A DNA stretch of 64,000 nucleotides, taken from Patescibacteria group bacterium. Lineage in GTDB: Bacteria > Patescibacteriota > Patescibacteriia > UBA2591 > CALHIP01. A program made the translations under genes and the position numbers. The DNA lies in contig JAOACJ010000016.1 in assembly GCA_026417895.1 (NCBI GenBank), positions 20,015-84,014 of the forward strand, given 5' to 3'. Of the stretch, positions 9,341 to 64,000 are shown piece by piece. Below the pieces are notes generated by a model. The model was given only the letters and a program-made list of their open reading frames with translations, made no database searches and was not told the DNA's origin. Within the stretch, counting starts at the first letter, position 1. Each line of letters opens with the position of its first letter.

Positions 9341-9361
9341 AATTTAATATTACACTCATCT

Positions 9362-12300: not shown

Positions 12301-12703
12301 TAACCAAACCGCAAATCATTTTGGAAAAATTGACTAAAACGGCCATGAGCAAAACCGGAGCGAGAAGGGTTTTATAAGAATACTTTTCAATTTTCAAAAC
12401 CGTAGCAAAGGCAATAACTAAGAGCATCAAGATAAAAAACATATTGGCCAAATCACGAAGAATCTCCCAGCCTTTATTAACGGCACTTGTTCTAAGAAAA
12501 TTATTGTATTGGGCAATGCCGGTAATCCAATCAATAGTCCAGGTAACAAAAATACCCAAAAATCTAGCAATTGTCTCAAAAATTTTTGAAATGGCATCTT
12601 CAATAAAGCCAGCGAAGGTCGGTTGAACAATTAAAAAAATCCCTGTCAAAACAAAAATCAGACAGCCAAAAGTCAGCCAATTTTTTTTCTTTTTTAAATT
12701 CAT
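9362..12703 (-). CDS. VirB6/TrbL-like polytopic membrane protein with large C-terminal soluble, coiled-coil-rich domain
   Basis: 1113 aa. At least six hydrophobic helices in the first 330 aa or so, with Trp/Phe-rich loops as in TrbL/VirB6 pore proteins. A long Lys/Glu-rich helical C-terminal region follows. Located downstream of the giant protein and upstream of VirB4. Confidence 0.55.
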   Translation of the reverse strand: MNLKKKKNWLTFGCLIFVLTGIFLIVQPTFAGFIEDAISKIFETIARFLGIFVTWTIDWITGIAQYNNFLRTSAVNKGWEILRDLANMFFILMLLVIAFATVLKIEKYSYKTLLAPVLLMAVLVNFSKMICGLVIDFAQVIMLSFVNAFKDIASGNLSEILGLKTFGDLGEEITVTVNDWNKVWAWILACIMMFVALVVTFIILALLIMRIIALWIMIVLSPLAFICFVIPGGQKYAKQWQDKFFNQVIVGPVLAFFLWFAFYAVQQGNLNPTTGMGLQPGKVNVGPTVSGQSNVLASFALGIGMLIGALVAAQQLGVAGASLAGKGISFLQKSATKAAKWTARRLEGLKDRTMRAFRPVTTDLAAAIVKTPLALLTKGGKGVADVWKGWAEKASVTPIPAFVKKTAAKFAKLKGEKDLTVTEGMDLLKGAVSEQDWQSIENLKSRLGTNGGWTTDEKNQIKKIVESSNLETTQKEKLKDNIDKDIKTIEGLKNEQVVEKINEIVGALRSMLTRKGLSEKEINAQLGAFNQSGIKRRIEEIMRAGGAPQKEVQDLIDQFLGKMSQRRLPGAEKLPQKKSFTDQEKEQIEILLSKHIPIFTPLSKAELARFSGGVRGGVKYELDQIKKAHQADPNLTAISQSFEQIENIIDPHLKVGQISLTDRRKVKEQIGSILEQLMKENKLSEQEGASLKTKLLTQIELIPPKAMTTEEVLKQIGKDAFKWAAEKITLPLSYVAATLEATPDIPIFDLDALLKDIQNFNARRTRKREADRLGKLHDLMNLWVSWGKDQTDFKGNEIMRRVLEEKEELQNKTLGETHATLNELESALKGNDMPRANAALMILAENNDLNELFKGDWVEKFTPYLKKFLAQDYLGKTVEVFNEKTGKTEPVTITPEKIEELIRTAKTKGEVNPVFIREMVKNISLMAAKDEGVAAKIANMIGMISLEHGAPHMGYAISRLNPVRGKLEFSPFRMYIDQKGNFDITLSQETINEIVGKVKNMSQRMMYQRAHPGLFATEDMYGNMRGLNPLNIAFLVNAEKSFFERPNEMRDDVISKLTASLEFQKDFNNLIAQMMAQPYKFISPYLPTIQDVLKQVEAMKAYMARLKAARFVT

Positions 12704-21700: not shown

Positions 21701-22256
21701 GAGCAATGAGTTTTTCTTTCGCCTCTCTTATCCTTTCTTTCATCTTCGAAATAGGGCAACGTGCCTCATATTCAAAAGGAATTTTTGGCGGCTTTACAAA
21801 TAAGAGAATATTCAGTTTTATTGTCGGATCAATCGGATCACAAAGGCTTTGGAGACCAAAACCTTTAGTCGCCACTTCATCTAAAAGATCACCGACAACA
21901 GAATCAGCCATTTTGTTCCAGTATTCTTTGTCGGTAAAAAACATTGGTTTGCCAGCTTTACCGCCAGTGGCCAGCCAAGTAGCTGATTCGGTGACAAATT
22001 TTTGGGCAAAACCTTCAAGAAAGCTTTTATAAAGAATGGCTATTACCTGATATTTTACCTTGTCATAAATCCTAATAGCTTGACTTTTTATCCATTCTAA
22101 AACCCGGGGAATATCACCGACGGTTGTGGAAGCTCCTTGAGCATATGCTGGTTTCGGCCAAAATAAAAGAGGAGTAAGTAGGGAGAAAATCATTACTCCG
22201 AGTAAAAAACTGATGATAATTTTTCGAAGATGTTTTTTCATTTTCCCTTTTTTCAA
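12741..22256 (-). CDS. giant secreted cysteine-rich surface protein with three CBM_4_9-like carbohydrate-binding modules
   Basis: 3171-aa uninterrupted ORF. N-terminal signal peptide (…LLTPLLFWPKPAYAQG), very many Cys in CxxC / CC / C-x-n-C arrangements, no TM after the signal. Three modules carry the CBM_4_9 signature (N..FE…W…G..Y.LSFWVK…YLDD): around LLPGTKYTLSFWVKNKDQ…IYLDDLQLEV, QKGRSYLLSFWVKRASNN…FYLDNITLKEV and NGDFEIGSG…VYFDDIEFKP. Confidence 0.8.
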   Translation of the reverse strand: MKKGKMKKHLRKIIISFLLGVMIFSLLTPLLFWPKPAYAQGASTTVGDIPRVLEWIKSQAIRIYDKVKYQVIAILYKSFLEGFAQKFVTESATWLATGGKAGKPMFFTDKEYWNKMADSVVGDLLDEVATKGFGLQSLCDPIDPTIKLNILLFVKPPKIPFEYEARCPISKMKERIREAKEKLIAQYKEGLKGYVNVEYVPGQPPQVQVKIKNAIRIDTKLYDVNKSNLINIADQLSGHQQLFLTEWDKYLQESKKIGPPNISGVLNSLSTIKERLKAITQGPPTFQTSLNWWLGRKWTSDGYRPIEAPVRCLNKSQEEFCQNPNCYNGACPGINNATQCQNNYSYCFEAIKRAQNYASQLSEWATTLEKMVDEAREAVEKGTPSPDLNILEDIQKTFTPEGSDLGVAMSLKSGILSKAAEKVGADKFFQSLQGQFQSVTSKISGKALLPAGLTEERARQMIAEGKASLKVYTGVLVADVANTFIQTFFSKFLERLFQKEGLNPEASPSGRTSWEGGIPASPTQEKIEAIYADLKTVSFKKPSGEINLLEEFAACPTETKYALPYNCVIDGGFARAIEENLTIKEAIEKNYLHGNWYVGSYGLTDGARDFSSRYSLTNLKKLRRARVIPLGLEIAAEKISRGDFGDAKFTLAQIVEGFDKVSSDGDCTIYVQGDPKSNTTEKKCEGSIGSWDSSANCCKKDGQCLVSASPFCHLVDPNWVLKLPSMQCNLMAYSAIPLPASNERQETCIEMKDCVGENEDGTCHTYGYCTREKNIWRLAGTQCPAYYNTCQLYTRTKDNQRFAWLKNTLDFGDCDANSVGCQWYCQRWNKDFAEGAGGWICTEPNQSLNIQPNGSVGSPRSVSDPFNTIFFNKFVETCPATSEGCSEFIRTKENLGTNLLPNSSFEDYSETSTTTTPTILVKGWQITSGQFLVDEAEAKSGKVSAKFTGSGKVELASTDNVDISLLPGTKYTLSFWVKNKDQSNDREIQVKINNSVTKIIPISKNTPWQRVSTDFIAPNNKKIIDLEIAVNGTGIYLDDLQLEVGSLSSYKSYASTNKIYLKKAPDWMKCYNRDNNGNLITNDDDHACADYALACQQDEVGCEKYTPVLGGPYLPAVARDTDRCPRECVGYEVFKQKPTHFYSEEDAYFIPRTVRICPASEVGCEEFTNLDVVNRGGEGREYYSYLRPCQKPRAECQYFYTWIGSETTGYQLKRYYLLAKTTTNGFEPDEMLSSNNAQALWGRCQNSQDARTNPHCKEFYDANGHVSYKLYKNTITCSETCVPLRKTTTVISGYCPTSTQGGLALNGVEFNNGICTYMAIPAEGERCSSVNVGCREYQGNAANNLRILFEDDFESLTVEPWIDGELSSESIYFGGRSMRVANNNNSVSRPVQDLVQKGRSYLLSFWVKRASNNSTTLTIRFRGNDNNIDFPSLPALTTGEWYSFTVGPVYFQREVANDERLVILSSSPFYLDNITLKEVRQNIFAIKNSWQTPTVCDQDLTGASAPGYHLGCAEYRDRANQSHFFRSFSKLCPEIKIGCEALIETKNSTSPFSETFNLTDPDEPKDNVLVPADQLTYLVVDQTKACPAGDKGCQKFGLPNLSQGEPISWTDFYLKNNPDLYTRRPILCRYHQQNCEEFEQAAAGKVYFKDPGEKICVWREKVPIGSEYRTGWFKKGTDQPCYTNYLPDGVTYGIKFSEESGYQGLVGECEERFAGCTEYIEPLRTAGVTNYVQNGDFEIGSGSSGQGPAPNWSYGYSGNSSTVSWDGASKSLKIANDTPHTVGADTRKIYAASQIVEIPHKNQKSFVLNFKVKVVSTSHLSYPSGHVNLKYEGWRGVTQLNGCQTEECQDWQEYKNHCGSSQSCCSWVGGNWSNNQCNISGQPKCKFNRGNLKECIAFLIKNGGNPWGDNLNHWPWNYEHGYEIGASIDASTTITSWQKRSLRVVAGGPLNPKNLAIEEIKIIPLLAPAYWHGGCSKTNAGDCTTIQNCPNCPWRCCEAFGEVYFDDIEFKPLDPYYYLDNNQLDKASCRGQVSLKEGCVLFKAQNDPSAIYNSIATYAKSEANQHRLVSPIDCTKKPWPVDGQGNPVNSDDNCTNSNFANTDYCRYCYALGQNTNDTNLILKVRRDRVCGEWLYCAGKRYVWQENQQRFLEICDYFLRCQKQTGEGSGAQCTLVSTETPEVLTEQKYKNRDFGWTGMDYSGYSLYNFYPVEMLRPKNYPNGYALSYLSGTTDYGVGNRTCTRNEDCPKGQVCYQSKCVVSPTCKLYPENTSPFSREVEGTYRGLNLCTERGGNNCLCSYRKAESVLGEPTYYFNLETDVESIKVCTQAENPQDLGKCCSPPCPNGMAVAFREDCTRTDEGRKNNQGKCEPMKKITDYIGLAGYCLEPDLEKPKEIQACLTWFPGEVETGLDSYNQVRSAGYFPSSDRRWYGYERYTRPAEISGFAPTFFPLGFNLTSSFPGQRLGGNWGCFADRLIQPLYLGGDYGNKCSEYTNYGETDLGYCFLAEGGEGTILQAKYIPYLERKIKREEIQKIIVKAKFRWENTTCSDLNTVDCSSSNKCCGPFDLELGPNNFKRAAYLHATHQNSSGYVCKSNGTCPVGGACLADECPDKNKSCLFIQAEFDQENYLRNFHLEFNEDGSGWGGAIIYTINLHLKSGANLPIKAYLAPASEINVAEGASCWRKDSNNNSRGCCQDYLGFSSEELKRDGSVTRQWACDGTDKEMASCFRGDQRKGSPSQAIYLYSSSYFAKSGNNFYYLDRKIYEYMIDRIEIDWKIDKSNPGDCKFGADYQGTIILPYEDPATKEKKYEKEVTGKGNGEARLFVQTIFDQKEGELKGFKVEFNDDDAGHGAAALTGIRIILKEAANKLVKINDKPYLPTVVNTNLVKLKPGTDVPYGNLTDILDYSYECLPRGATGFQGTMPKKYIIDSKGEVCHLYSGGIYDSDAVIKKLFPKSYAWSYLDVNTLSYLPGNIANNWDSRSDTSLHPTDRSPQIQSVNFSTGVPAGGTVGKITIGNQESGNILISGKTYTATLRFYAWADGAYMPVREVVVDWGDGFRSGSSNMITKNRKPVCKKGTDGLPLSFGDDPDACLNQYWEFVHTYLCTNPNGCSYQPKVYVKDNWGWCAHSASTPTTPYAGDFSCLDPDGNPGTSTPANFGVPYDGQIILNP

Positions 22257-34704: not shown

Positions 34705-35865
34705 ATGCGAATTGGCTTTTTTAGCGACACTTATTTACCAATTACTTTTGGCACTGAAATCTCTATGGAAACTTTTAAAAAGGAGCTAGAAAAATTTGGT
34801 CATGAAGTTTTTGTTTTTTGCCCAAAATATCCAGACCGAGAAGGGCTAGAAAAAAATGTTTTTCGTTTCCCTTCTCTCCGTTTAATGAAAAGTCCAGAAA
34901 ATCGGTTGATGTTTTTTGGACCAGCGGCGGTGAAAAAAATTGTTAATTTAAAATTAGACGTCGCTCACGCCCACACGCCCTTTTCGGCCGGTATTTTAGC
35001 CAAGCTGGTAGCTAAGAAACTAAAAATTCCTCTTTTCTATACCTCACACATGCTTTATCCTGAATATGCTAAACACTGGTTGATTAGAGAAAATAAAATT
35101 TTGCCGATTTTAATGAAATTCTATTTAAAAATCTATGGCAATAGTTGTACCGCTTTAATTGCTCCTTCAGAAAAAATGAAAAAATTACTTGAGGAATATG
35201 GTGTGGAAAAGCCAATTTTTGTTTTACCAACTGGTCTTGATTTTACACGATTAGAAAAAGTTCAAGAAAAAGATTCGGAAACAAAAAGGAAATTTAATAT
35301 TCCTTTAGACCACAAAATCTTACTCTACGTTGGCCGCTTGACTCAAGAAAAAAATGTTGGCTTTCTTCTGGAGGCTTTTTCTGAAATTCGAAAAAAGAAA
35401 CAAGATGTTTGTTTAGTCTTGGTTGGTGAAGGATACTTAGAAAGAGAATTGAAAGAAAGAACAAAAAAATTAGGTTTAGAAAAAAAAGTCATTTTTACCG
35501 GTCGAATTTTATGGGAAGAGGTGGTCAAACTTTATCGCGACGCCTATCTTTTTCTCTTTGCTTCTTTAACTGATACGCAGGGCTTGATTATTGTTGAAGC
35601 AAGTTATTTTGGCCTACCGATTGTTGCTTTGAAAGATGAGTCTTATCAAGGAATGTTGATTGATGGAAAAAATGGCTTTACGGTTTATCCCTACGACCCT
35701 GTTCTTTTCGCTAAAAAAGTCTTAGAAATTTTAAATGACGAAAAACTCTATCAAGAATTTTCAAAAAATGGTCGGGAGTTAGCCAAAAAATTTTCCGCTG
35801 AAAATCAGGCAAGAAAATTGGTTGAGATTTACGAGAAAATGCGATCCATGCCGATAGGCAAATAA
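34705..35865 (+). CDS. GT4-family glycosyltransferase
   Basis: Glyco_transf_4 N-terminal region and the C-terminal GT1/GT4 EX7E-like region LYVGRLTQEKNV…FLFASLTDTQGLIIVEASYFGLPIVA. Confidence 0.8.
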   Translation: MRIGFFSDTYLPITFGTEISMETFKKELEKFGHEVFVFCPKYPDREGLEKNVFRFPSLRLMKSPENRLMFFGPAAVKKIVNLKLDVAHAHTPFSAGILAKLVAKKLKIPLFYTSHMLYPEYAKHWLIRENKILPILMKFYLKIYGNSCTALIAPSEKMKKLLEEYGVEKPIFVLPTGLDFTRLEKVQEKDSETKRKFNIPLDHKILLYVGRLTQEKNVGFLLEAFSEIRKKKQDVCLVLVGEGYLERELKERTKKLGLEKKVIFTGRILWEEVVKLYRDAYLFLFASLTDTQGLIIVEASYFGLPIVALKDESYQGMLIDGKNGFTVYPYDPVLFAKKVLEILNDEKLYQEFSKNGRELAKKFSAENQARKLVEIYEKMRSMPIGK

Positions 35866-35937: not shown

Positions 35938-36009
35938 GCCCCCATAGCTCAATGGATAGAGCATCAGCCTTCTAAGCTGAGGATGCGTGTTCGATTCACG
36001 CTGGGGGTA
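35938..36009 (+). tRNA. tRNA-Arg (anticodon TCT)
   Basis: Cloverleaf folded by hand: acceptor GCCCCCA/TGGGGGT (one G-U pair), D arm GCTC-AATGGAT-AGAGC, anticodon stem TCAGC/GCTGA with loop CTTCTAA (U33, anticodon TCT, A37), T arm GCGTG-TTCGATT-CACGC, discriminator A; CCA not encoded. Confidence 0.8.
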
Positions 36010-54048: not shown

Positions 54049-55434
54049 TTGGTTTTAAATTTTATGAAAATAGTTCGTATTCTAATTCTTGTTTTCATTA
54101 TTTTCTCTTTTCTTTTTGGTTGGGAATTAGGAGCTCAAATACCCGGTCAACCTCAACCTAGAAAGCCAATCTTGCCACCCGTTAATCTTTCTTGGTGGGT
54201 GGTCTGGGAACAACCGAGTGATTTTACTGACTTAATTAATACTTTCCGCACTCTCTATCCCTATGTTAATATTGAAGTCAAAAAATTTCGTTACGAAGAA
54301 TATCGTGAGGCTTTAATTGAGGCTTGGGCCCGGGACGTCGGACCAGATATTTTTTCTCTCCCCAATACCTGGCTTAGAGAATATCAGGAGTGGATTGTTC
54401 CGATGCCAGCCAAAGTTGCTTTAAAAAAAGAAATTCAAAGTGGTCCTTCTTGTGCTCGAAAAACAAAAATCATTACCGAAGAAAAACCCTTACTTACTCT
54501 TAAAGATTTAAAAGAAAAATTTGTGGGTCAGGTAGAAAAAGATGTTTTAATTCAGGGTCGAATTGCTGGTCTACCTCTTTCTTTTGATACCCTAGTTCTT
54601 TATTACAATCGTGATCTTTTAGATGCAGCTGGTATTCCTGAACCCCCAAAAACCTGGGAAGAGTTTATGGAGGCAGTGATTAAGACAACGTTGATAGATA
54701 AACAAAAAAATATTTTTCAAGCGGGTGCAGCTTTAGGGACAGCCAATAATATCGAAAGAGCAGTTGACCTTCTTTCTCTTTTGATGATGCAAAGTGGCAT
54801 CAATATGACCAATCCTCAGGGTTTGGTTACCTTTAATCAAGCCTGGCCAGACGATCCATCTTATTTTCCAGCCGAAGAAGCTTTGAGATTTTACACTGAT
54901 TTTGCTGATAAAAATAAAGAAGTTTATACTTGGCATAAAGAGATGCCCTCGAATTTAGAAATGTTTATCCAAGGGAAATTGGTTTTCTTTTTTGGTTATG
55001 CCTATCACTTACCTTTAATTAAAGCACAGGCCCCGAACCTGAATTTTGGCTTAACCAAAATGCCCCAGAGAAGTGGAACGCTTAAAGAAATAAACTTTGC
55101 TCATTATCCAGTTCAAGTCGTCTCCCGAAAAAGCAAAAATATAGAAATGGCATGGTTTTTTCTGAATTGGGCAAGCCAGAACCCAACTCCTTATTTAAAT
55201 CGCGCCAAAAAGCCAACCGCCCTACGAAGTTTGATTGCCATCCAATTGCAGGATCCAGATTTAGAAGTTTTTGCTTCACAGGCTTTAACAGCTTCCTCTT
55301 GGTATCAAGGGAAAAACCCACTTTTGGTGGAAGAAGCTTTTAAGGAAATGATTGATGATATCAACGAAGGCAGAAAGTCTTATCTAGAGGCAATCAATTT
55401 CGCTGTCCAAAAAATTAATCAACAAATAAAATGA
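54049..55434 (+). CDS. extracellular solute-binding protein (ABC-type, family 1-like), orphan
   Basis: Signal/anchor N-terminus, about 460 aa, with blocks resembling sugar-binding SBPs (…TWEEFMEAV…). No permease or ATPase genes are adjacent. Confidence 0.5.
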   Translation: MVLNFMKIVRILILVFIIFSFLFGWELGAQIPGQPQPRKPILPPVNLSWWVVWEQPSDFTDLINTFRTLYPYVNIEVKKFRYEEYREALIEAWARDVGPDIFSLPNTWLREYQEWIVPMPAKVALKKEIQSGPSCARKTKIITEEKPLLTLKDLKEKFVGQVEKDVLIQGRIAGLPLSFDTLVLYYNRDLLDAAGIPEPPKTWEEFMEAVIKTTLIDKQKNIFQAGAALGTANNIERAVDLLSLLMMQSGINMTNPQGLVTFNQAWPDDPSYFPAEEALRFYTDFADKNKEVYTWHKEMPSNLEMFIQGKLVFFFGYAYHLPLIKAQAPNLNFGLTKMPQRSGTLKEINFAHYPVQVVSRKSKNIEMAWFFLNWASQNPTPYLNRAKKPTALRSLIAIQLQDPDLEVFASQALTASSWYQGKNPLLVEEAFKEMIDDINEGRKSYLEAINFAVQKINQQIK

Positions 55435-56297
55435 AATTTTTTAATTTTCACATTCACCAAAATAGCCAAAGTTTCATTTTCAAAATCTTTTTTCTCTTTT
55501 CTCTTCTTTCTCTTTTCCTGTCTATTTTTTCGCCGGTTTTGGCAGAAAACACCACCTCCTCAACTTCAATGGTCACTGTTTATACGTGTGATACAAGCGG
55601 TTGTCGTCCTGGAGGATTGATGAAGGCCGTCTCTCTAAAATGTGCTTGTTGTGGCGATTGTGATTTAAACGATATTCTTAAAATCGTTGTGGGAATCTCT
55701 CGTCTGATTCTTCGTTGGGTTGGTGTTTTGGCTCTTATCTTTTTTATTATTGGTGGTATAATCTGGTTGACCTCCAGTGGTAATCCAGAACAGGTAAAAA
55801 GAGGGAAACAAATCTTGGTTGGTACTCTTATCGGTCTTTGTATTGTTTTTTTTGCCTGGCAAATTGTTAATATCATTATTTGCGGACTCTCTCAAGGTAA
55901 ACTTGAAGAATCTTGCACCCTCTTTAATCGGAAATGGTATGTCTTTCCGGGCGAAAAAGAAAAAAAATGTCAGATGGAAGAAAGACCAAATGCAGCTTGT
56001 TTTACCAACTGGCCTGAATGTCCATCTTTTGCGGCGATGGGTCCCAATCCCATTTGGAATTCAGATTGTAAGAAAGAGGAGGTAAAGACCATCCAGCAAA
56101 AATTAGCTCAACTTTGTTGTTACGGTACAGGTGTAGCAACTATTGATGGTTGTTTTGGCCCGGAAACAAGAAATGCAGTCAAATTATTCTGTCAAAAGAA
56201 TAGTGGTTGTGGGACTGGTAATGATCAAGGTTATGTTGATCAAACGACCTATAATTTAATTACCACCGGCACTGACCTTCAACTATGTCAAGAATAA
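55431..56297 (+). CDS. VirB2/TrbC-like pilin-family protein fused to a Cys-rich region and a C-terminal peptidoglycan-binding (PG_binding_1-like) domain
   Basis: Signal peptide …SPVLAENTT. Pilin core ILKIVVGISRLILRWVGVLALIFFIIGGIIWLTSSGNPEQVKRGKQILVGTLIGLCIVFFAWQIV. C-terminal VKTIQQKLAQLCCYGTGVATIDGCFGPETRNAVKLFCQ matches the PG_binding_1 pattern. Confidence 0.6.
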   Translation: MKFFNFHIHQNSQSFIFKIFFLFSLLSLFLSIFSPVLAENTTSSTSMVTVYTCDTSGCRPGGLMKAVSLKCACCGDCDLNDILKIVVGISRLILRWVGVLALIFFIIGGIIWLTSSGNPEQVKRGKQILVGTLIGLCIVFFAWQIVNIIICGLSQGKLEESCTLFNRKWYVFPGEKEKKCQMEERPNAACFTNWPECPSFAAMGPNPIWNSDCKKEEVKTIQQKLAQLCCYGTGVATIDGCFGPETRNAVKLFCQKNSGCGTGNDQGYVDQTTYNLITTGTDLQLCQE

Positions 56298-56301
56298 ATA
56301 T

Positions 56302-56658
56302 ATGTCATTCTTTTATAAAAATTTTCTTCTTCTTGCTACTTTCTACTTTCTATTTTCTAGTTTTATTTTGCCGGTTTTAGCTGAAGAAACAACCGAACTC
56401 CCTAATCCCCTTGGCACCGGCATGACCACGGAAAAAATTGTTGCCAATGTCATTAAACTGATTTTAGGTTTAGTTGGTGTGTTGGCTTTGATTATGTTTA
56501 TTTACGGTGGTATTACTTGGATGACTTCGGGTGGCAATGTTGAAGCGGTTAAAAGAGGAAAAAATACTTTAGTTTGGGCGGTTTTAGGTTTAGCTGTTGT
56601 TTTCTTTGCCTACAGTTTGGTCAATTTTATTTTAACCAAAGTGCTTGGCGTAAGGTAA
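56302..56658 (+). CDS. VirB2/TrbC-like pilin-family protein (paralog 2)
   Basis: Signal peptide …LPVLAEETT; core VIKLILGLVGVLALIMFIYGGITWMTSGGNVEAVKRGKNTLVWAVLGLAVVFFAYSLV; 118 aa. Confidence 0.6.
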   Translation: MSFFYKNFLLLATFYFLFSSFILPVLAEETTELPNPLGTGMTTEKIVANVIKLILGLVGVLALIMFIYGGITWMTSGGNVEAVKRGKNTLVWAVLGLAVVFFAYSLVNFILTKVLGVR

Positions 56659-56693
56659 AAACTTTTTAAAATAGACTGTGGATAAATCTTTCT

Positions 56694-56720
56694 TGACTTT
56701 TTCGTTTTTGGAAGTAAAAT
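56694..56720 (+). promoter_or_regulatory. possible promoter inside the pilin array (TTGACT-15nt-TAAAAT; spacer short)
   Basis: TTGACT at 56694-99 and TAAAAT at 56715-20; strong RBS GGAGGG before the paralog-3 start. Confidence 0.3.
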
Positions 56721-56755
56721 AAAACCATCACCATTCTTTTAAAGGTCGTCATTAA

Positions 56756-56778
56756 CTAGACACAAACCTTGTGTTTAG
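56756..56778. promoter_or_regulatory. imperfect inverted repeat CTAGACACAA-acc-TTGTGTTTAG between candidate promoter and RBS of pilin paralog 3
   Basis: Seen directly; 10-nt arms with 1 mismatch. Confidence 0.3.
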
Positions 56779-56806
56779 TTCGGAGGGAAAATAAAATTGG
56801 AAAAAT

Positions 56807-57172
56807 ATGAGAAAAATTCTTTTCACTTTATCAACCTTAACTTTACTGGCTTTACCGGGCGTCACCTTTGCTCAAGTCAATGAATGGTTGAATAACATGG
56901 CTTTACAGAACATTCTGCCGACCAATGTTGATCTACCAGGTCTTGTTTTCAGCATTATTCGCTACATTCTTGGTTTCTTAGGGGTGGTGGCCGTTGTTGT
57001 CATTATTATTGGTGGTTTTATGTGGATGACAGCGGCTGGTAATGAAGAAAAGGTGGCTAAAGCCAAAAAGGTTTTAGTTCAAGGTTTGATTGGTTTAGTC
57101 ATTGTTATGTTAGCCTTTGCCATCGCCACCTTTGTCATGAGTATGATTCGAACCAGCACAGCTGGGGCCTAA
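56807..57172 (+). CDS. VirB2/TrbC-like pilin-family protein (paralog 3)
   Basis: Signal peptide …VTFAQVNE; core IIRYILGFLGVVAVVVIIIGGFMWMTAAGNEEKVAKAKKVLVQGLIGLVIVMLAFAIA; 121 aa. Confidence 0.6.
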   Translation: MRKILFTLSTLTLLALPGVTFAQVNEWLNNMALQNILPTNVDLPGLVFSIIRYILGFLGVVAVVVIIIGGFMWMTAAGNEEKVAKAKKVLVQGLIGLVIVMLAFAIATFVMSMIRTSTAGA

Positions 57173-57216
57173 TCTAATTTTTTTAGGGAAGAGAAATTAT
57201 TTTTTAAATTTCTTTT

Positions 57217-57612
57217 ATGAAAAAAGGAAATTTCTTTTGCCCTTCCTTTATTTTTCTTTTTCTCTTATTTCTTTTCCTTTCATTTCAATTTTCTCTTGCC
57301 CAAGTTGACCCTCAAGTTTTGGAGGGTGAAAATTATTTAGATGAATTAGGCCAAGGAACAGATGTTTTAGAAAAAAGAGATTTAATTCTCCTTATTTTCT
57401 CGATTGTGCGCTATCTACTTGGTCTGATTGGTGTCGCGGCTGTCATAGTTATTATTTCGGCTGGTTATTCTTGGATGACAGCGGCTGGTAACGAGGAAAA
57501 AGTGAAAAAAGCCAAAGCTGTTTTACAAAATGGTATCATTGGTTTGGTCGTTATTATGATTGCCTATGCCTTGACGATTTTTGTTTTTAAACTCATTCGC
57601 GGCGAATTATAA
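57217..57612 (+). CDS. VirB2/TrbC-like pilin-family protein (paralog 4)
   Basis: Signal peptide …FSLAQVDPQ; core IVRYLLGLIGVAAVIVIISAGYSWMTAAGNEEKVKKAKAVLQNGIIGLVVIMIAYALT; 131 aa. Confidence 0.6.
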   Translation: MKKGNFFCPSFIFLFLLFLFLSFQFSLAQVDPQVLEGENYLDELGQGTDVLEKRDLILLIFSIVRYLLGLIGVAAVIVIISAGYSWMTAAGNEEKVKKAKAVLQNGIIGLVVIMIAYALTIFVFKLIRGEL

Positions 57613-57616
57613 TTTT

Positions 57617-58063
57617 ATGAAAATAAAGAAACAAAAAAAAGAGAGAATGTTTAAAAAAATTTTTTGCTGGTTAATTTTTTTATTTTTACTTTTTTCAGCT
57701 ATCAAACCAGCTTTAAGTCAAGTCAGACCCGAAACTTTAAATCTTTTAGAGAATGTAGCTGGTCAGGCTGGTTATAAAGCGCCCCAAGATCCAGTCAGAA
57801 TAGTTATTCGAGTCATTAATTTTCTTCTTAATTTAGTCGGTGTCTTTTTTATTTTAATGATTATTTACGGCGGTTTAATGTGGATGACCGGTGGAGCAAC
57901 TGATTTTTTGTGGTTGGGCGGTGCAGGGCAAGAAGAAAAGATAAAAAAGGCCAGAACACTTATTCGAGATGCCATTATTGGCCTAGCCATTATTATTTTA
58001 TCTAAGGTTATTTATTATTTTATTGTAGAAAGATTTAAAGAGGCGGGAGAAGAAGTGGAATGA
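57617..58063 (+). CDS. VirB2/TrbC-like pilin-family protein (paralog 5, divergent loop)
   Basis: Start moved to the Met at 57617 (MKIKKQKKERMF…) to avoid a 32-nt overlap. Signal peptide …KPALSQVRPE; core VINFLLNLVGVFFILMIIYGGLMWMTGGATDFLWLGGAGQEEKIKKARTLIRDAIIGLAIIIL. Confidence 0.55.
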   Translation: MKIKKQKKERMFKKIFCWLIFLFLLFSAIKPALSQVRPETLNLLENVAGQAGYKAPQDPVRIVIRVINFLLNLVGVFFILMIIYGGLMWMTGGATDFLWLGGAGQEEKIKKARTLIRDAIIGLAIIILSKVIYYFIVERFKEAGEEVE

Positions 58064-58410
58064 GAATTGATAAAGTTTTATTTGACTAAATAATATTAAC
58101 AAAGACAGAGACGAGAGGGATATAAAATCCGGGTTGTTGTGAGATTGTTGGCTGAGTCGGTTGTGGTTCTGTTTGGTGTTGAGATTCTTCGATTTTTTAC
58201 CTTTCATTTCTACCTCCTGGACATTTTAGAAAAACGTCCATTAAGTTTCTGGCTACCGGAGGGATTTGTACCTTCCAAAAAACTGCCCTATTAGGTAGCT
58301 AATTTTTATTTTTCTATTAAAATTCTAGCAAATTTTCAAAATTTTGTCAAAAGCAAATTTCCACTTATTTAAGCGGAAATTTTATGTTTAATGATATAGA
58401 AACTTTAAAA

Positions 58411-59136
58411 TTAAAAATTTTTAAGTCTTTGTTTTAGTTCAATCATTCCCTGGATATCTTCCCAAGCCGTGGCTAAGACTTTGACGGTGCTTTTTCTCTG
58501 AACTGTTCTTCTTTCCATCCATTCAACAGGAATTTCTTTGATTTTAAAACCTGATTTTTCAGCCAAAATTAACAATTCGCTATCAAAAAACCAGTTATTA
58601 TTTTTTATTTTTGGCAGAATTTCTTGACTAACTTTTTGAGAGATAGCCTTAAAACCGCACTGAGCGTCTTGAAAGCTTGGCTGGAAGAAAATTTTCAATA
58701 GTAAATTATAAATCCGACTCATTAATTCTCTTTGAAAAGATCTTTGAGTTTGACTTTCTTTTTTTAATCGTGAGCCGATGGCTAAGTCGTAATTTTCCTC
58801 AGCAATGGCCTTGATTAATAAAGGAAAGTATTTTAAATCAGTGGCTAAATCAATGTCCATATAAGTATAAATGTCCGCTGAATATTCTGACCAAGCCTTT
58901 TTTAAAGCATAGCCTCTCCCCTTTTCAAGAATATGAAAAAATGAAATTTCTTTATATTTTTTTGATAATTTTTCAGCAATTTCTGACGTCGCATCACTTG
59001 AACCATTATCAGCAATTAAAATTTGCCAATTAAAATTTTTGAGATTTTTTTGACAGAAATCAAAAACTTTCAAAGTATTTTCTTTAACAACCCTTTCTTC
59101 GTTGTAAGTTGGCAAGACAAGAAGAATTTTTTTCAT
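58411..59136 (-). CDS. GT2-family polyprenol-phosphate glycosyltransferase (DPM1/GtrB-like)
   Basis: KILLVLPTYNEERVV…IADNGSSDATSEIA and the DxD region MDIDLATD; 241 aa. Confidence 0.8.
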   Translation of the reverse strand: MKKILLVLPTYNEERVVKENTLKVFDFCQKNLKNFNWQILIADNGSSDATSEIAEKLSKKYKEISFFHILEKGRGYALKKAWSEYSADIYTYMDIDLATDLKYFPLLIKAIAEENYDLAIGSRLKKESQTQRSFQRELMSRIYNLLLKIFFQPSFQDAQCGFKAISQKVSQEILPKIKNNNWFFDSELLILAEKSGFKIKEIPVEWMERRTVQRKSTVKVLATAWEDIQGMIELKQRLKNF

Positions 59137-60334
59137 AAAGAAAATAAATTAAAAAATAGAAAAAAACAGCTAAATGAATTAAGGAAATGAGAATGGAAAA
59201 TTCACCAGCCAAATTTCTAATTTTATTTTGCCAATCTAAATTTAAAAAAGTCAAGGGTAAAGAATAGATGAGATTTAGGAAAGCGGTTAAAGAAACGATC
59301 AAAAAAATTCTTTTTAATTCTTTTCGAAAAGGTAAAATTAGACAAAAAATAGTAAAGAAGGGAAAAATATATCTTTCATGCATAGCGGTAGGGAGAAAAT
59401 AAAAAATGAAGGCGATAAAAAGATTGCCAAAAAGAAAACAATTAAATTCACCTTTATTTTTTCTTAACCATAGAAGAACCAAAAAATAACTTAAACCAAA
59501 AAGAATGAAACCAATACAACCATAGCTAAAAGGACCAACAAAGACCGTATCATCTTTAATAAAATTTCTACCTAAACCAATCATTACCTGAGGAATCCAC
59601 CAAAGATTAAAAGCATTCATTGAAAGGGCCGGGCTCATTCTGGCCGAGGCTAACCAAGTTTTTTCAAAAAGCGAAATTAAAGAAAGGCCGTTGATCAAAA
59701 GAGGAGAAACAAGGACAAAAAACAAACTCACTGCTACTAGTAGAGAAAAAGATAAAATTTTTAGACCATAATTTTGCCAAATAAAAAAAAGAAAAAGAGG
59801 AAAAAAGATGACAGCTTGAAGTTTGGTTAAAAAAGAAATGGTCAAAAAAATAAGAGAGAGAAGTGGTTGTTTTTTATCTAAAAAAATTAAAGCAATGATC
59901 AAAAATAAAACAAAAAGAGAGTCCCACTGCCCCCAAATTGATGAATTATAAAGAATAAAAGGATGTAAAAAATAAATGAAACCAAACCAGAAAGCTTTTT
60001 CTTGGCCAACTTTTCTTTTTAAAAAATAAAAAATCAAATAAGCAGTCCAAAAATCAGCCAAAACCGCTGGGATTTTAAGGGTCCAAGCGGTCAAAGACGA
60101 ACGAAAGATTAAGTAAAAGAAAAGAGTAAAAAAACCCAACCAATAAACCCAAAGCGGTGGTAAATTTGGTGATTGGGGGTTTTGATAGAGAGAAAATGGT
60201 CCGTATTTTAAGACATTTTCACTCCATTTTTGATGCACTCTTAAATCCCAACTAATACCTGGTAAAAAAATTAAAACAAAGCGGAACAAAATAACTAAGA
60301 CAATCAGAAGCCAAAAAATTTTTTTATTTTCCAT
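59084..60334 (-). CDS. polytopic GT-C-type membrane glycosyltransferase-like protein
   Basis: 416 aa, about 11 hydrophobic helices. Paired with the GT2 genes as in GtrB/GtrC or ArnC/ArnT systems. Confidence 0.5.
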   Translation of the reverse strand: MENKKIFWLLIVLVILFRFVLIFLPGISWDLRVHQKWSENVLKYGPFSLYQNPQSPNLPPLWVYWLGFFTLFFYLIFRSSLTAWTLKIPAVLADFWTAYLIFYFLKRKVGQEKAFWFGFIYFLHPFILYNSSIWGQWDSLFVLFLIIALIFLDKKQPLLSLIFLTISFLTKLQAVIFFPLFLFFIWQNYGLKILSFSLLVAVSLFFVLVSPLLINGLSLISLFEKTWLASARMSPALSMNAFNLWWIPQVMIGLGRNFIKDDTVFVGPFSYGCIGFILFGLSYFLVLLWLRKNKGEFNCFLFGNLFIAFIFYFLPTAMHERYIFPFFTIFCLILPFRKELKRIFLIVSLTAFLNLIYSLPLTFLNLDWQNKIRNLAGEFSILISLIHLAVFFYFLIYFLYEKNSSCLANLQRRKGC

Positions 60335-60999
60335 AAAAAGAGTTTTAAGAGATGAAGGATAAATTTGCCAATTACTAACCAGCTTAATTTACTTGCACCC
60401 TTTTTTCGATCGATGAAAAGATAGGGTATTTCTCTAAAATTTTTGTATTTTCCTTTGACAAAAATTTCTAAACCAATTTTATAACCAAGCGGTGAAAATT
60501 CCATACCTTCAACAACTTCTTTTCTAAAAAAGAAAAAACCAGAAAGAGGATCAGAAATTTTAGGTACTAAAATTTTAGCCAAGAAAGTGGCTAGGCCAGA
60601 AAAAACCTTTCTTTTTAAAGGCCAATTTTTAATTCTACTCCCCTTGACTCTTCGACTGGCTATCACTAAGTCAACCTCCTTTAATGCTTCTATCATTGGT
60701 AGAATTAATTCTGGTGGATGCGAAAGGTCGGCATCCATGACACCCCAAATTTTACCCTGGGCGTTTTTAAAACCCTCAAGAACAGCCAAAGAAAGATCTC
60801 TTTGTCCCTTTCTTCTAATTAATTTTATTTCTAAAGGATAATTCTTTTTTACCACCTCTACTTTGTCAGCTGTGCCATCAGGCGAATTGTCATCGACAAT
60901 AATTACTTCTAGATTTTTGATTTTTAATTCAGAAAGAGTAGAAAATAATTTCTCAATATTTTCTCTCTCATTATAAGTAGGGATGATTAAAGAAATCAT
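60304..60999 (-). CDS. GT2-family polyprenol-phosphate glycosyltransferase (DPM1-like)
   Basis: MISLIIPTYNERENI…EVIIVDDNSPDGTADKV…GVMDADLSHPPE. Start placed at the internal Met (the ORF track gives 61086). Confidence 0.8.
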   Translation of the reverse strand: MISLIIPTYNERENIEKLFSTLSELKIKNLEVIIVDDNSPDGTADKVEVVKKNYPLEIKLIRRKGQRDLSLAVLEGFKNAQGKIWGVMDADLSHPPELILPMIEALKEVDLVIASRRVKGSRIKNWPLKRKVFSGLATFLAKILVPKISDPLSGFFFFRKEVVEGMEFSPLGYKIGLEIFVKGKYKNFREIPYLFIDRKKGASKLSWLVIGKFILHLLKLFLWKIKKFFGF

Positions 61000-62254
61000 A
61001 TTGATGATTGTTTTTGTTTTTAGTTGAATTTTGATAGAAAAGATAGAAGAATAAGTAAAGAAAGCAAAAAATATTAATAAAGACAAAAACCCAAGAGGAA
61101 AAATTAGAGAGATTAAAGAGATAAAAGGATTGCCGGAAAGGCGCGATAGCAGCTAAGTTAGCAAAAAAGGACAGAGAAAGCAAAAGATAAATTAAAAACA
61201 AATTTTTATCTTTATTTAAAGTCAAAATCATTAAAGGAAAAAGAGGATAGAGATATCGTTCGTGCATTCTGGTTAATAACATAAAGAAAGAGAAGGTTAA
61301 AAAAGCGCTTGTTAAATAAATTATTTTTGGCGAAGAGTTTTTTAATAGATTTTTGACAGCCCAAAAATAAGTAGTAAAGAAAAAAATAAAGCCAACTAAA
61401 AAATAAGGAAACAAACCTAAAAATTTTGCTAGATCAGAAGTAAGATATGGATAATAAAGCCACCAGAAATTAAAAGCATAGACTGAAAGATAAGAATATT
61501 GACCAGCAAGAAGAAAAGGAATTTTAATCACAGAGAAAATTTTGCCTGATAAGATAAAAGGTAAACAAATAATCAAGGCGGTGAGGATAGCTAGGCCGAT
61601 ATTTTTAAAAAGATGAAGAAAACCTTTCTTTTGCCAGTTAAGACAAAAAATTAAAGGAAAGAAGATAATACTCTGCATTTTAAAAAGAAAAGCAATGGTT
61701 AAAAAAATCCAAGAAAAAGAAAATTTATTTTTGGTGACAAAAAATAAGGCAAGTAAGATAAAAAAAGTATGGATTGAATCAACCTGGCCCCAATAAGCGG
61801 AGTCATAAATTAAGCCTGGATTGAAAAGGTAAAGAGCGAGAATGAAAAAGGCCAGCCAAAATTTTAGTTGAAATTGTTTTCGGAGTAGAAAAAAAATAAA
61901 AAGGCCAGTTAATAAATCAAAAACAATGGCTGGTAATTTGAGAAGAAAATAAAGCGGATAGGTATTTAATTCAAAATTCGGTGAAAAAAACTTTTGATAG
62001 ATTTTTCCGATAAGAGCCAAAACATAAAGATAGGGCGGAAAATAATTAGGCAACATTACTTCTGGATTGACTCGTTGTTCATAAGCATTAAGTACACCAA
62101 ATTTCGTGATTGATTTCGCCCATTCCTGCCAAAAATTTAAATCTGGCCGATAACCAGCATAGGGAATAAGCCAAAAACGAATCAAAAAGGCAAGAATGAA
62201 AAGAGAACAAAGAAATAAAAAACATATTTTTTTATTGGTAAAAAAAATCTTCAT
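60971..62254 (-). CDS. polytopic GT-C-type membrane glycosyltransferase-like protein
   Basis: 427 aa, many hydrophobic helices, DUF2029/GT-C-like organisation. Confidence 0.5.
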   Translation of the reverse strand: MKIFFTNKKICFLFLCSLFILAFLIRFWLIPYAGYRPDLNFWQEWAKSITKFGVLNAYEQRVNPEVMLPNYFPPYLYVLALIGKIYQKFFSPNFELNTYPLYFLLKLPAIVFDLLTGLFIFFLLRKQFQLKFWLAFFILALYLFNPGLIYDSAYWGQVDSIHTFFILLALFFVTKNKFSFSWIFLTIAFLFKMQSIIFFPLIFCLNWQKKGFLHLFKNIGLAILTALIICLPFILSGKIFSVIKIPFLLAGQYSYLSVYAFNFWWLYYPYLTSDLAKFLGLFPYFLVGFIFFFTTYFWAVKNLLKNSSPKIIYLTSAFLTFSFFMLLTRMHERYLYPLFPLMILTLNKDKNLFLIYLLLSLSFFANLAAIAPFRQSFYLFNLSNFSSWVFVFINIFCFLYLFFYLFYQNSTKNKNNHQYDFFNHPYL

Positions 62255-62257
62255 CTT

Positions 62258-63778
62258 TTAATCATTAGTAATAATTCTAAAAACTGAACCATCTAAATTA
62301 TAAAACATTTTTTTCTCTTTGATATGTGGAATTTCCTCGGCTCGGGCGACATATAAGTAATTTTTATGAGGGTCATAACATTGATTAATATCACAGAATT
62401 CATATTTATCAAAAGAAACTACTTCTTGCCAATTATCTGGCCGATAGACTCTTTTCACTTCAATTGATTGAAATTTTTTAGGATCGTATTTAAGATAAAA
62501 TAGAAAATAGATATAAGGTTGATTAGCTTTATTAGTAAAAACTATTTTTGTATATTTATCTTGATTTTCTTTAATATAATTAATAACCTCTTTAAAACCA
62601 AATTGGTAAAGCGTTCTTTCATAATTATATGGATAGCCAATTTTAAAAAGAAAATCAGCGTTTAGTATTAATGATAGAAACAAAATAGATGATAAAGAAA
62701 ATATTATTTTTCGAGGATTAATTTGCAACCTTTCTTTCAATAAAAAATAAATTTTATAACACCCATATGCGGCAATAATTTCTAAAAATGGTAACATTGG
62801 AACAGATCTTAAACTGCCGGGGTTAGGAAATGTTAAGGCCGCAGGTAATAGAGAAATAATCAAAATCCAAAATAATAATCGATGCTTTGCCAACCCCCTT
62901 TTTTGCCATAAGAAATAAATACCCATCAATGCAGCTATTAAAATTGGTAGCAAATAATGAGTAAAAAGGAATTTTGGACTTAAATAAACCAAATAATTTA
63001 TAAAAAATAAAATTGGCCAAAAAGAAAAATTAAAAACTGAAACCTGATAAAAACGACCTTGGATTTTTTGCCAGTTAGTTAATTGGGTATACAAAAAGGG
63101 TGAAGCAATAGCCAAAAAAACAAAAATGGATAAAATAATATATTTTTTCCATTGCCAAACCCTTTTCCTATAAATTATTAAAGACCCTATTAATAAAAGA
63201 GGATTATAGACTTTTGTTATTGCATACGTATAGAAATTTAAAGCCAGAGGAACAGCGCTTAAAACAATGAACTTCGGTTTTTTTAAACCCTTTAAAAAAA
63301 ATAGGATAGTTAAAGAAATAAAAAATGGAACAGTAATTGCTTCAAAACTTGCTCGACTTAAAAAAATATGCCAAGGAGAAATAGTCAAAAAGAAAGTAGC
63401 TAACAAGGCAATAGATCTTTTTTTAAATAGTTCTTTAGTTAAAAAATAAGTTAATAAAACAGTTAAAAATCCGAAAATTACTGACGGAAGTCTGGTCGAA
63501 AATTCATTTAAACCAAGGAAGGCAATGAATGGAATAGTAATATAAGGGTAAAAAATATGATTTCTTACATCAACCCGATCACTAAAAGCTTCAAAATATA
63601 ATGGTAAAAAATTTCCTCGATGGTCGCGTCCTGTTTTTAAAAGTGAATAGGCTTCATAACCGTTAAGCACCTCGTCTTGGTTAAAAGTTATAGGAAAGAT
63701 ATTGAGACAAATAATTCGTAAAAGAAGGGCAGCTATAAAAATTAAAAGAAGAAAAAGTTTCTCAAAATTTCTTTTCAT
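62258..63778 (-). CDS. GT-C membrane glycosyltransferase, PMT/ArnT-like (GT39/GT83-like)
   Basis: N-terminal loop DEVLNGYEAYSLLKTGRDHRGNFLPLYFEAF carries the Asp-Glu motif characteristic of the PMT/ArnT family, followed by many TM helices; 506 aa. Confidence 0.6.
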   Translation of the reverse strand: MKRNFEKLFLLLIFIAALLLRIICLNIFPITFNQDEVLNGYEAYSLLKTGRDHRGNFLPLYFEAFSDRVDVRNHIFYPYITIPFIAFLGLNEFSTRLPSVIFGFLTVLLTYFLTKELFKKRSIALLATFFLTISPWHIFLSRASFEAITVPFFISLTILFFLKGLKKPKFIVLSAVPLALNFYTYAITKVYNPLLLIGSLIIYRKRVWQWKKYIILSIFVFLAIASPFLYTQLTNWQKIQGRFYQVSVFNFSFWPILFFINYLVYLSPKFLFTHYLLPILIAALMGIYFLWQKRGLAKHRLLFWILIISLLPAALTFPNPGSLRSVPMLPFLEIIAAYGCYKIYFLLKERLQINPRKIIFSLSSILFLSLILNADFLFKIGYPYNYERTLYQFGFKEVINYIKENQDKYTKIVFTNKANQPYIYFLFYLKYDPKKFQSIEVKRVYRPDNWQEVVSFDKYEFCDINQCYDPHKNYLYVARAEEIPHIKEKKMFYNLDGSVFRIITND

Positions 63779-64000
63779 AAAGGCTTTTGTTGTAGGATGG
63801 GGATATTTTTCTTGACATTAAGGTCAAATAATAAAATATTGGGTATAAGTTCAGTAAAAGAATAATTCAGAAATAAATCATTTTTTAATTCTTTTTCTAC
63901 AATATTTTGGTTAAAATTAAGAAACAAAAAGTACTTTCTTTTTTTATCTTTTTCCAAAATTTCTAAAAAACTTGACCTTTTATCAATTTGCCAATAAAAC

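Follow-up and report, generated by a model that had tools for sequence, protein, structure and literature searches.

A candidate operon for outer-face membrane glycosylation with lipid-linked sugars in a Patescibacteria group bacterium

A 64,000-nucleotide stretch of genomic DNA from a Patescibacteria group bacterium (here referred to as the window) contains, on its minus strand at positions 58411-63778, five adjacent genes that very probably belong to one operon for glycosylation at the outer face of the membrane with lipid-linked sugars. Two of the products, P1 and P3, are glycosyltransferases of the GT2 type, and the other three, P2, P4, and P5, are polytopic membrane proteins assigned to the GT-C fold. 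This reading is built on the gene structure, the folds, and the conservation of the active sites, and the function of every protein is assigned by homology.

Gene order and genomic surroundings

The five genes fill the interval exactly, as had been proposed for a five-gene glycosylation cluster in an earlier, sequence-only reading of this DNA. All are minus-strand open reading frames, namely, P1 (58411-59136, 241 aa), P2 (59084-60334, 416 aa), P3 (60304-60999, 231 aa), P4 (60971-62254, 427 aa), and P5 (62258-63778, 506 aa). For P3, a start at the ATG at 60999 (MISLIIPTYNE) is likelier than one at the TTG at 61086, which would add 29 residues in frame and extend the gene to 60304-61086. At a G+C content of about 30%, arithmetic gives roughly 8% stops among random codons, so that frames staying open over 241-506 codons would not be expected by chance, and each of the five proteins has homologs in the hundreds. 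Neighboring genes overlap by 53, 31, or 29 nt or, in one case, are separated by a 3 nt gap. The overlaps had been recognized in the sequence-only reading, but with each GT2 gene followed by a membrane-protein gene; the transcription order is P5>P4>P3>P2>P1, and hence each GT2 gene comes after such a gene. The 3' end of a sixth minus-strand gene, cut by the window end, lies at 63775-64000 (open from 63999 down to its TGA stop at 63777-63775). Its stop (63775) and the start of P5 share an ATGA overlap, indicating that the operon comprises at least six genes. The 74-residue tail of the sixth product resembled none of the proteins or loci compared in the analysis, and scans for promoters and terminators gave background-level signals in the cluster.

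The plus strand carries a galU-like gene at 53175 (TIGR01099, 301 bits versus a cut-off of 327), a solute-binding protein gene at 54049, and five small pilin-like genes at 55431-58063 that converge on the cluster. These neighbors had been named correctly, but the pilins are of the VirB2/TrbC type associated with type IV secretion systems and do not represent type IV pili: four of the five match PF18895 (T4SS_pilin; E 2e-10 to 3e-8), and for the fifth (about 57644-58063) the similarity was judged by eye alone. The intergenic region between pilins and cluster (58064-58410) is not conserved in the related loci L001-L003. Across the 64 kb window, Pfam scans of all open reading frames of at least 100 aa found no GtrA-, SMR-, MATE-, or Wzx-type flippase, and an Rfam scan of the window returned one tRNA only.

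Predicted glycosyltransferases of the cluster

P3 is classified, from its sequence, as a conventional polyprenyl-phosphate mannose synthase of the DPM1 type. The protein matches PF00535 with 113 bits (cut-off 23) and, over residues 2-224, the DPMS of Pyrococcus furiosus (PfDPMS; PDB 5mlz) with an E-value of 3e-63, being about half identical to the catalytic domain of that enzyme. The equivalents of PfDPMS E12, D39, D89, D91, H94, R117, R131, S135, K178, R202, and K208, the roles of which were taken from PMC5526996, are all retained. They include the metal/donor DxD motif (D89-A-D91 in P3), the lipid-phosphate residues (PfDPMS R117, R131, and S135, which are R116, R130, and S134 in P3 by our own count from a HMMER alignment to 5mlz), and the GDP-mannose contacts (D39, D89, H94, K178, R202, and K208), and the DADL(Q/S)H signature is present as well. 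Substitutions relative to PfDPMS are F177 to Y and Q93 to S, the latter as in human DPM1. Of the motifs quoted in the sequence-only reading, PTYNE was found in both GT2 proteins, and DDNSPDGT and DADLSHPPE in P3. P3 matches the whole catalytic domain and the amphipathic interface helices of PfDPMS, but the alignment ends at residue 250 of 374, ahead of the membrane domain; P3 stops past the second interface helix, so that the four-helix membrane domain found in the archaeal type III enzyme is missing from it. Hydropathy analysis of P3 gave nothing beyond a borderline amphipathic segment at the C-terminus, in place of the membrane anchor of GtrB, ArnC, or type I or III DPMS, and in this respect P3 is like the anchor-less human DPM1 or the catalytic subunit of mycobacterial Ppm1. 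Further matches of P3 were to ArnC (PDB and NCBIfam searches) and to the Synechocystis GT2 sll0501 (5ekp).

P1 is likewise placed among the GT2 polyprenyl-phosphate sugar synthases, but in an uncharacterized subfamily that is only distantly related to DPM1. It matches PF00535 with 81 bits (cut-off 23), its PDB matches are PfDPMS (2e-17) and ArnC (6e-13), and ArnC was matched in the NCBIfam search too. The DxD motif (D94-I-D96) and the lipid-phosphate site (R123, R136, and S140, counted in the same way) are kept, whereas the mannose/GDP contacts are altered (H94 to T, Q93 to A, and D39 to N in PfDPMS numbering). Because these contacts are kept in P3 and changed in P1, only P3 is assigned to the DPM1 type, and the earlier description of two DPM1-like GT2 enzymes applies to P3 but not to P1. 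The broader proposal that both make polyprenol-phosphate sugars agrees with their predicted class, the best solved relatives being Dol-P-Man synthase and ArnC. Reading the nucleotide specificity of P1 from the Asp39 position was dropped, since ArnC, which uses a UDP-sugar, has Asp there too. A hydropathy scan of P1 detected no membrane helix and thus no C-terminal anchor of the GtrB, ArnC, or type I or III DPMS kind. Orthologs at least 50% identical to P1 occur across several phyla.

PDB searches with the single sequences of P2, P4, and P5 returned nothing meaningful, so that profiles and structure prediction were needed. With these, all three are predicted to have the GT-C fold, with the N-terminal membrane module that solved GT-Cs have in common and with a conserved acidic residue in their first external loop; the positive-inside rule places the loop-1 acidic residues outside the cell. 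The sequence-only reading had called all three PMT/ArnT-like, which fits P5 alone, while P2 and P4 resemble ALG6, ALG3, PIG-M, and PimE. P5 has about 12-13 membrane helices followed by a C-terminal alpha/beta domain (residues ~395-506) and matches PF02366 with 35 bits (cut-off 23); its sequence matches are PMT_2/PMT, and among solved structures the lipid-modifying ArnT matches it best. A DE-containing first loop had been noted for this last polytopic protein, and it is indeed present (NQDEV), with D35-E36 invariant in 60 sequences. The C-terminal PMT_4TMC domain of GT39 enzymes (PF16192) gave no match in P5 at E<=0.1, and P5 ends in a different soluble domain instead. Given this difference and the best match to a lipid-modifying enzyme, a protein acceptor is not implied by P5 itself.

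P4 (about 11-12 membrane helices) and P2 are paralogs with 33% identity over 380 residues (E 3e-41), and the top structural and profile matches of both are the ER enzymes ALG6/ALG8, ALG3, and PIG-M. Their first-loop Asp (D38 in P4, D30 in P2) is invariant in 63 sequences and aligns with ALG6 D69, and P2 contains all of the invariant residues of the family (D30, WGQWDS 134-139, K171/Q173, and HERY 319-322). The loop-1 catalytic Asp and the H-E-(K/R) motif of ALG6/ALG8 (GT57), ALG3 (GT58), and PIG-M (GT50) align with P4 and P2, but identity to these ER enzymes is only 12-18%, and both proteins are shorter than ALG6. Also invariant across the 63 family members are a Lys and a His at positions like those of PimE K195 and H322, which bind the donor phosphate (PMC12041525). 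These residues, together with the operon linkage to two GT2 synthases, are what suggests that the GT-Cs may use polyprenyl-phosphate-linked donors. An assignment of P4 to GT-C(B) was withdrawn, as ALG6, ArnT, PglB, and PimE are all classed as GT-C(A) in the PimE paper (PMC12041525). The prokaryotic family of P4 and P2 carries the JGI label 'Gpi18-like mannosyltransferase' and has members in CPR, Bathyarchaeota, Methanoperedens, Firmicutes, and Chloroflexi; no characterized member was found, and a literature search on the family name was empty.

Related loci and known systems

Co-location was assessed in 80 loci encoding a P4 relative, with GT2 genes counted within 6 kb. A GT2 gene was present in 49 of these loci; in 22 of the 80, a P1-type GT2 lies beside the P4-like GT-C, and in at least 14 a trio of P4-like GT-C, PMT-like GT-C, and P1-type GT2 occurs, in both CPR and Bathyarchaeota. 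None of the 80 has a P3-type GT2 near the P4 relative. Unlike P5, the PMT-like partner in Bathyarchaeota carries both PMT and PMT_4TMC domains, and in Chloroflexi-like genomes the P1-type GT2 occurs on its own. The relatives L001-L004 share the same flanks with differing gene sets between them, showing that GT2/GT-C pairing is not fixed. A fixed pairing of each GT-C with the adjacent GT2 was accordingly rejected; in L001, for example, the GT2 gene after the P4 ortholog is an ortholog of P1 and not of the P3 type. Pilin arrays comparable to that at 55431-58063 adjoin the cluster in six related loci (L001-L003, L011, L013, and L019). Similar gene sets in CPR genomes have been noted before (PMC6031116).

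The closest known layout is that of actinobacterial protein O-mannosylation, an established pathway of GT2 (Ppm1), GT39 (Pmt), and GT87 (PimE-type) enzymes for which the flippase has yet to be identified (PMC12757957, PMC12041525). The layout proposed here has the same three parts, namely, a GT2 that makes polyprenyl-P-mannose in the cytoplasm, a DE-motif PMT-type initiator acting outside, and an elongator of the ALG6/PimE fold. It differs in that the genes are gathered in a single operon, there are two copies of the elongating GT-C, an extra non-DPM1 GT2 is present, P5 is without PMT_4TMC, and the organism is a CPR bacterium. Three-component systems (GtrA/GtrB/Gtr*, ArnC/ArnEF/ArnT, and CsbB/GtrA/YfhO) also couple a GT2 polyprenyl-phosphate sugar synthase to an outside-acting GT-C (PMC11127046). 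However, they have one of each, compared with two synthases and three GT-Cs here; neither the cluster nor the window contains a flippase gene, and P1 and P3 are without the membrane helices that GtrB and ArnC have at their C-termini.

Proposed pathway and possible acceptors

In the proposed pathway, P3 would move mannose off GDP-mannose and onto polyprenyl phosphate on the cytoplasmic face, and P1 would place a second sugar, probably from another nucleotide sugar, on the same carrier. A flippase encoded outside the window would then carry the lipid-sugars across the membrane, after which the three GT-Cs would pass the sugars to acceptors outside the cell with the loop-1 Asp as catalytic base. 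In the most likely division of labor, which is modeled on the actinobacterial Ppm1/Pmt/PimE pathway, P5 would act as the initiating transferase on Ser/Thr of secreted or surface proteins, and P4 and P2 would lengthen the glycan as elongating transferases, possibly with differing donors or linkages. A protein acceptor has, in our judgment, close to an even chance of being correct. The VirB2/TrbC-type pilins and a giant protein, both named as possible substrates in the sequence-only reading, are candidates. The search for Ser/Thr-rich acceptor regions that had been suggested there gave a short stretch directly after the signal peptide in two pilin paralogs, and overall only modest local enrichment in the pilins and the giant protein. 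These two stretches and the pilin arrays beside clusters in distant CPR relatives lend weak support to such substrates.

The same enzymes could instead act on a cell-wall glycopolymer or membrane lipoglycan (teichoic-acid-like polymers or lipomannan-like glycolipids), as do Gtr-type three-component systems, CsbB/YfhO, and mycobacterial PimE/Mpt, a reading that we regard as a real, if more doubtful, possibility. Among solved enzymes, those closest to P4 and P2 (ALG6, ALG3, PIG-M, and PimE) all glycosylate lipid-anchored glycans or glycolipids and not proteins, and ArnT is a lipid glycosyltransferase. P2 has a weak NCBIfam match (25 bits) to 'cell surface glycopolymer formation protein', a distant family member in locus L006 adjoins a Wzm/Wzt polysaccharide export cluster, and three-component logic is widespread (PMC11127046). 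Set against this are the lack of polymer-synthesis, export, or ligase genes beside the cluster in the window, the lack of a GtrA-like flippase, and the conserved Bathyarchaeota partner, whose PMT and PMT_4TMC domains are typical of protein O-mannosyltransferases.

It is improbable that P4 and P2 complete a lipid-linked oligosaccharide outside the cell, in the manner of ALG6 and ALG3 in the ER, for en bloc transfer to protein by P5 or another enzyme: P5, at only 506 aa, has neither the large C-terminal domain of STT3/AglB/PglB nor the WWDxG motif, it matches PMT_2/PMT and reaches 20 bits with the archaeal STT3 model (cut-off 450), and the cluster encodes no phosphoglycosyltransferase to start a diphosphate-linked glycan. 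Least likely is that the polytopic proteins are not glycosyltransferases at all but transporters, O-antigen polymerases or ligases, or inactive scaffolds like PIG-U/GAB1. Such a reading could draw on the lack of a direct Pfam match for P2 and P4, but it is at odds with the invariance of the loop-1 Asp and PimE-like Lys/His across the family and with the linkage to GT2 donor synthases, seen in this genome and in many others. Moreover, the top structural and profile matches include neither a transporter nor a Wzy/WaaL family, whereas matches to transporters or O-antigen polymerases were what the sequence-only reading had named as fatal to its GT-C assignment; together with the GT-C features, this leads us to reject the transporter and polymerase alternatives.

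The preferred reading, i.e., a pathway with an initiating P5 and elongating P4 and P2, is of a textbook type. Next to nothing is known, however, of the surface chemistry of CPR bacteria, which for the most part are epibionts not yet cultured, and a lipid-donor-dependent glycan operon beside a pilin array provides a concrete, testable candidate for CPR surface decoration. A wider scenario, which we consider unlikely, is that the PMT-like GT-C, the 'Gpi18-like' ALG6-fold GT-C, and the anchor-less P1-type GT2 form an ancient, uncharacterized module for extracytoplasmic glycosylation in CPR and Bathyarchaeota that uses a non-mannose polyprenyl-P-sugar; in CPR it would decorate the adjacent VirB2-type pilins and shape host-cell attachment as a lineage-variable island of surface diversity. 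A predicted fold and candidate catalytic residues can now be assigned to a large, mostly unannotated prokaryotic family of ALG6/PIG-M-like membrane proteins, which is of relevance to the question of where in prokaryotes the glycosylation enzymes of the eukaryotic ER have their roots.

Operon layout and the GT2 enzymes

The five open reading frames that the sequence-only reading described as an envelope glycosylation cluster exist on the minus strand with the coordinates it assigned, namely, in order of transcription, P5 (62258-63778, 506 aa), P4 (60971-62254, 427 aa), P3 (60304-61086, 260 aa from a TTG, or 231 aa from the ATG at 60999), P2 (59084-60334, 416 aa), and P1 (58411-59136, 241 aa). 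P1 and P3 are GT2 proteins, and P2, P4, and P5 are polytopic membrane proteins. Adjacent genes overlap by 29-53 nt or are spaced by 3 nt, and the stop codon of an upstream open frame, which enters from past the window end, overlaps the P5 start as ATGA; the operon therefore comprises six genes or more. P2 is paralogous to P4 (33% identity, E 3e-41) and P1, more distantly, to P3 (32% over 164 residues). Proteins 100% identical to P4, P5, and P1 are named 'hypothetical', 'glycosyltransferase family 39', and 'glycosyltransferase', respectively, at NCBI. The G+C content of the operon region (58000-64000) is 0.28-0.31, lower than in most of the remaining window (mostly 0.32-0.40), which could reflect membrane proteins rich in Phe, Ile, Leu, and Lys or a locus with a history of its own. 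Directly 3' of P1, the minus strand has a promoter-like site close to the consensus (TTGACA-17-TAGAAT with TG, 58350-58322); after it come GGAGG and a 69-aa ORF (58207-57998) overlapping the last pilin gene at its 3' end; the stretch 57998-58350 is not conserved in three related loci (L001-L003) and has no Rfam match.

Both GT2 proteins pass Pfam Glycos_transf_2. P3 aligns with the dolichyl-phosphate mannose synthase of Pyrococcus furiosus (PfDPMS, PDB 5mlz) over its catalytic domain (E 3e-63, residues 2-224), and this alignment was mapped onto the residue roles described for PfDPMS (PMC5526996). In PfDPMS numbering, P3 keeps E12, D39, D89 and D91 (motif DADLSH), H94, R117, R131, S135, K178, R202, and K208. 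Only two of the described residues are changed, Q93 to S and F177 to Y, the former presumably as in human DPM1. P3 ends after the second amphipathic interface helix, and the membrane domain that the archaeal enzyme has is missing. From its sequence, P3 is concluded to be a putative anchor-less polyprenyl-phosphate mannose synthase. Its ATG at 60999 (MISLIIPTYNE) is the start that agrees with other GT2 enzymes. An in-frame TTG 29 codons 5' of this ATG (60999-61086, minus strand) would add the hydrophobic N-terminal segment SLLIFFAFFTYSSIFSI, a possible candidate for a membrane anchor; against the TTG start stand a 115-nt overlap with the P4 3' end and the absence of a counterpart from the PfDPMS alignment. 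P1 is more distant (PfDPMS 2e-17, ArnC 6e-13). It retains the DxD motif and three lipid-phosphate-positioning residues (R123, R136, and S140), the mannose and guanine contacts of PfDPMS are altered, and no membrane helix was found in it. P1 is thus best described as a putative polyprenyl-phosphate sugar synthase with no assigned donor; its orthologs of at least 50% identity, in Patescibacteria, Chloroflexi, and other phyla, carry generic names only.

The polytopic proteins as GT-C enzymes

The assignment of the three polytopic proteins to GT-C glycosyltransferases was not refuted, as no transporter or polymerase family was among their top matches by structure or profile. In Pfam, P5 passes PMT_2 and PMT and does not pass PMT_4TMC. 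Modeling with 60 homologs gave a confident P5 structure (pLDDT 93.4), the acidic first-loop motif pointed out in the sequence-only reading is present as an invariant D35-E36, and a separate alpha/beta domain spans residues ~395-506. P2 and P4 alone gave no Pfam match, and no PDB match by single-sequence search. Their 776 homologs (E<=1e-3), labeled 'Gpi18-like mannosyltransferase' by JGI, show scattered weak matches to GT87/DUF2029, PMT_2, ALG6/ALG8, PIG-U, and ALG3, and a 63-sequence P4-family profile matched PIG-M (3e-13) and yeast ALG6 (1e-9) in the PDB. The invariant D38 of the family aligns with ALG6 D69 (position 87 in the chain with its 18-residue tag), and the invariant H331-E332-R333 with the ALG6 'HEK'. 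By sequence position, invariant K192 and H331 appear to resemble the donor-phosphate-binding residues of PimE, K195 and H322 (PMC12041525). No characterized member of this family was found among the homologs or in the literature under the family name. Since ALG6, ArnT, PglB, and PimE are all placed in subclass GT-C(A) (PMC12041525), P5 on the one hand and P4/P2 on the other represent two branches of one subclass.

Related loci in other genomes

In the close relatives L001-L003, identities to the window proteins are 68% (P4), 57% (P5), and 72% (P1), and the flanks are unchanged, with PGI on one side and the pilin array, SBP, galU, and ClpB on the other. The genes between these flanks are not the same as here (P5', a 526-aa protein without Pfam match, a 248-aa GT2, P4', and P1'; primes denote counterparts), and those of L004 differ again; locus content therefore varies between lineages. 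A P4-family profile scan of 185,579 species genomes gave 580 confirmed loci, the best 80 of which were kept; these come from CPR groups, Bathyarchaeota, Methanoperedens, Desulfosporosinus, Chloroflexi, and others. Among these best 80, a GT2 lies within 6 kb in 49, a P1-type GT2 (scoring 120 bits or more against P1) in 22, and a P3-type GT2 nearby in none, and at least 14 have the trio of a P4-like GT-C, a PMT-like GT-C, and a P1-type GT2; these counts are descriptive frequencies only. The trio loci include four Parcubacteria-like and about ten to fifteen Bathyarchaeota, in one of which the middle gene has PMT, PMT_2, and PMT_4TMC domains. Viewed from the P1 side, the linkage is not universal: a lone P1 ortholog occurs in three loci (one annotated Dehalococcoidia and two metagenome contigs), two of which adjoin purine genes, and in one CPR locus it is flanked by two large unannotated proteins. 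In L011, L013, and L019, three distant CPR loci, a pilin array of the type seen here converges on the cluster, with a DUF2079 membrane protein in between in L011.

Related clusters also encode 520-580-aa proteins without Pfam match (L001:2475-4190 and 5651-7231, L004:9071-10639, L013:4292-5944 and 7820-9559, L090:4394-5992 and 6708-8363), which by position may be further, very divergent GT-C enzymes. In three CPR relatives, the cluster is flanked by a SIS/bact-PGI_C isomerase gene (L001:1421-2482, L004:315-1373, L090:3334-4371), which belongs to the family of bifunctional phosphoglucose/phosphomannose isomerases and would suit the supply of GDP-mannose; here, the corresponding position lies past the window end.

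Candidate acceptors and the proposed pathway

The remaining window is housekeeping (dnaN, ftsH, rpsA, gyrA, yidC, a clpB-like gene, leuS, recA, and others), with a separate GT4-family (GT-B) glycosyltransferase at 34705-35865 (plus strand) and, 3' of it, the sole tRNA of the window (35938-36009). On the plus strand, five small pilin paralogs of the VirB2/TrbC type (55431-58063), together with a galU-like gene and a solute-binding protein, converge on the operon 3' end. The first pilin (55431-56297, plus strand) is a 288-aa fusion: besides a signal peptide and a T4SS_pilin domain, it has a Ser/Thr-rich stretch, and its C-terminal part is rich in Cys and includes a peptidoglycan-binding domain (PF01471); the pilin at 56302-56658 has the N-terminal segment EETTELPNPLGTGMTTEK. 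In two paralogs, the signal peptide is followed by a short stretch rich in Thr and Ser (AENTTSSTS and AEETTELPNPLGTGMTTEK), and synteny of pilin array and glycosylation cluster recurs in other loci, so that the pilins are weakly suggested as acceptors. A giant 3171-aa protein (12741-22256, minus strand), with a local Ser/Thr maximum of 40%, has CBM_4_9 carbohydrate-binding domains around residues 898-1030. Next come a 1113-aa protein (9362-12703, minus strand) and then 307- and 480-aa proteins, these three without Pfam match; all four are probably surface proteins. T4SS-like genes at 2336-5500 (minus strand), i.e., a PrgI-family small membrane protein (5069-5500) and a VirB4/TraC-like ATPase apparently split in two ORFs (4255-4932, TraC_F_IV N-terminal part; 2336-4249, AAA_10/TraG P-loop), may go with the pilin array 50 kb off.

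The reading with the most support is a pathway in which glycosylation from lipid donors takes place outside the membrane. P3 would synthesize polyprenyl-P-mannose and P1 a second polyprenyl-P-sugar, a flippase would expose both on the outer face, and the three GT-Cs would transfer the sugars to acceptors; by analogy, P5 may initiate, and P4 and P2 elongate. The closest known architecture is actinobacterial protein O-mannosylation, in which Ppm1 (GT2) supplies the donor, Pmt (GT39) starts the glycan, and GT87 enzymes of the PimE type extend it (PMC12757957). No flippase of the GtrA, SMR, MATE, or Wzx type was found in the window, and that of the actinobacterial system is likewise hypothesized only (PMC12757957). 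The main rival assigns the same enzymes to a wall polymer or lipoglycan as acceptor, for which Gtr-type three-component systems (PMC11127046) and mycobacterial lipomannan synthesis offer parallels.

A system of this kind, with lipid-linked donors and transfer outside the membrane, is well known, and a CPR genome was already noted to contain genes for GT87 and Dol-P-Man synthase (PMC6031116). Specific here are the duplicated ALG6-fold GT-C, the two anchor-less GT2 synthases in a window lacking a flippase gene, the recurrent linkage to a P1-type GT2 that is shared with archaea, and the adjoining VirB2-type pilin array.
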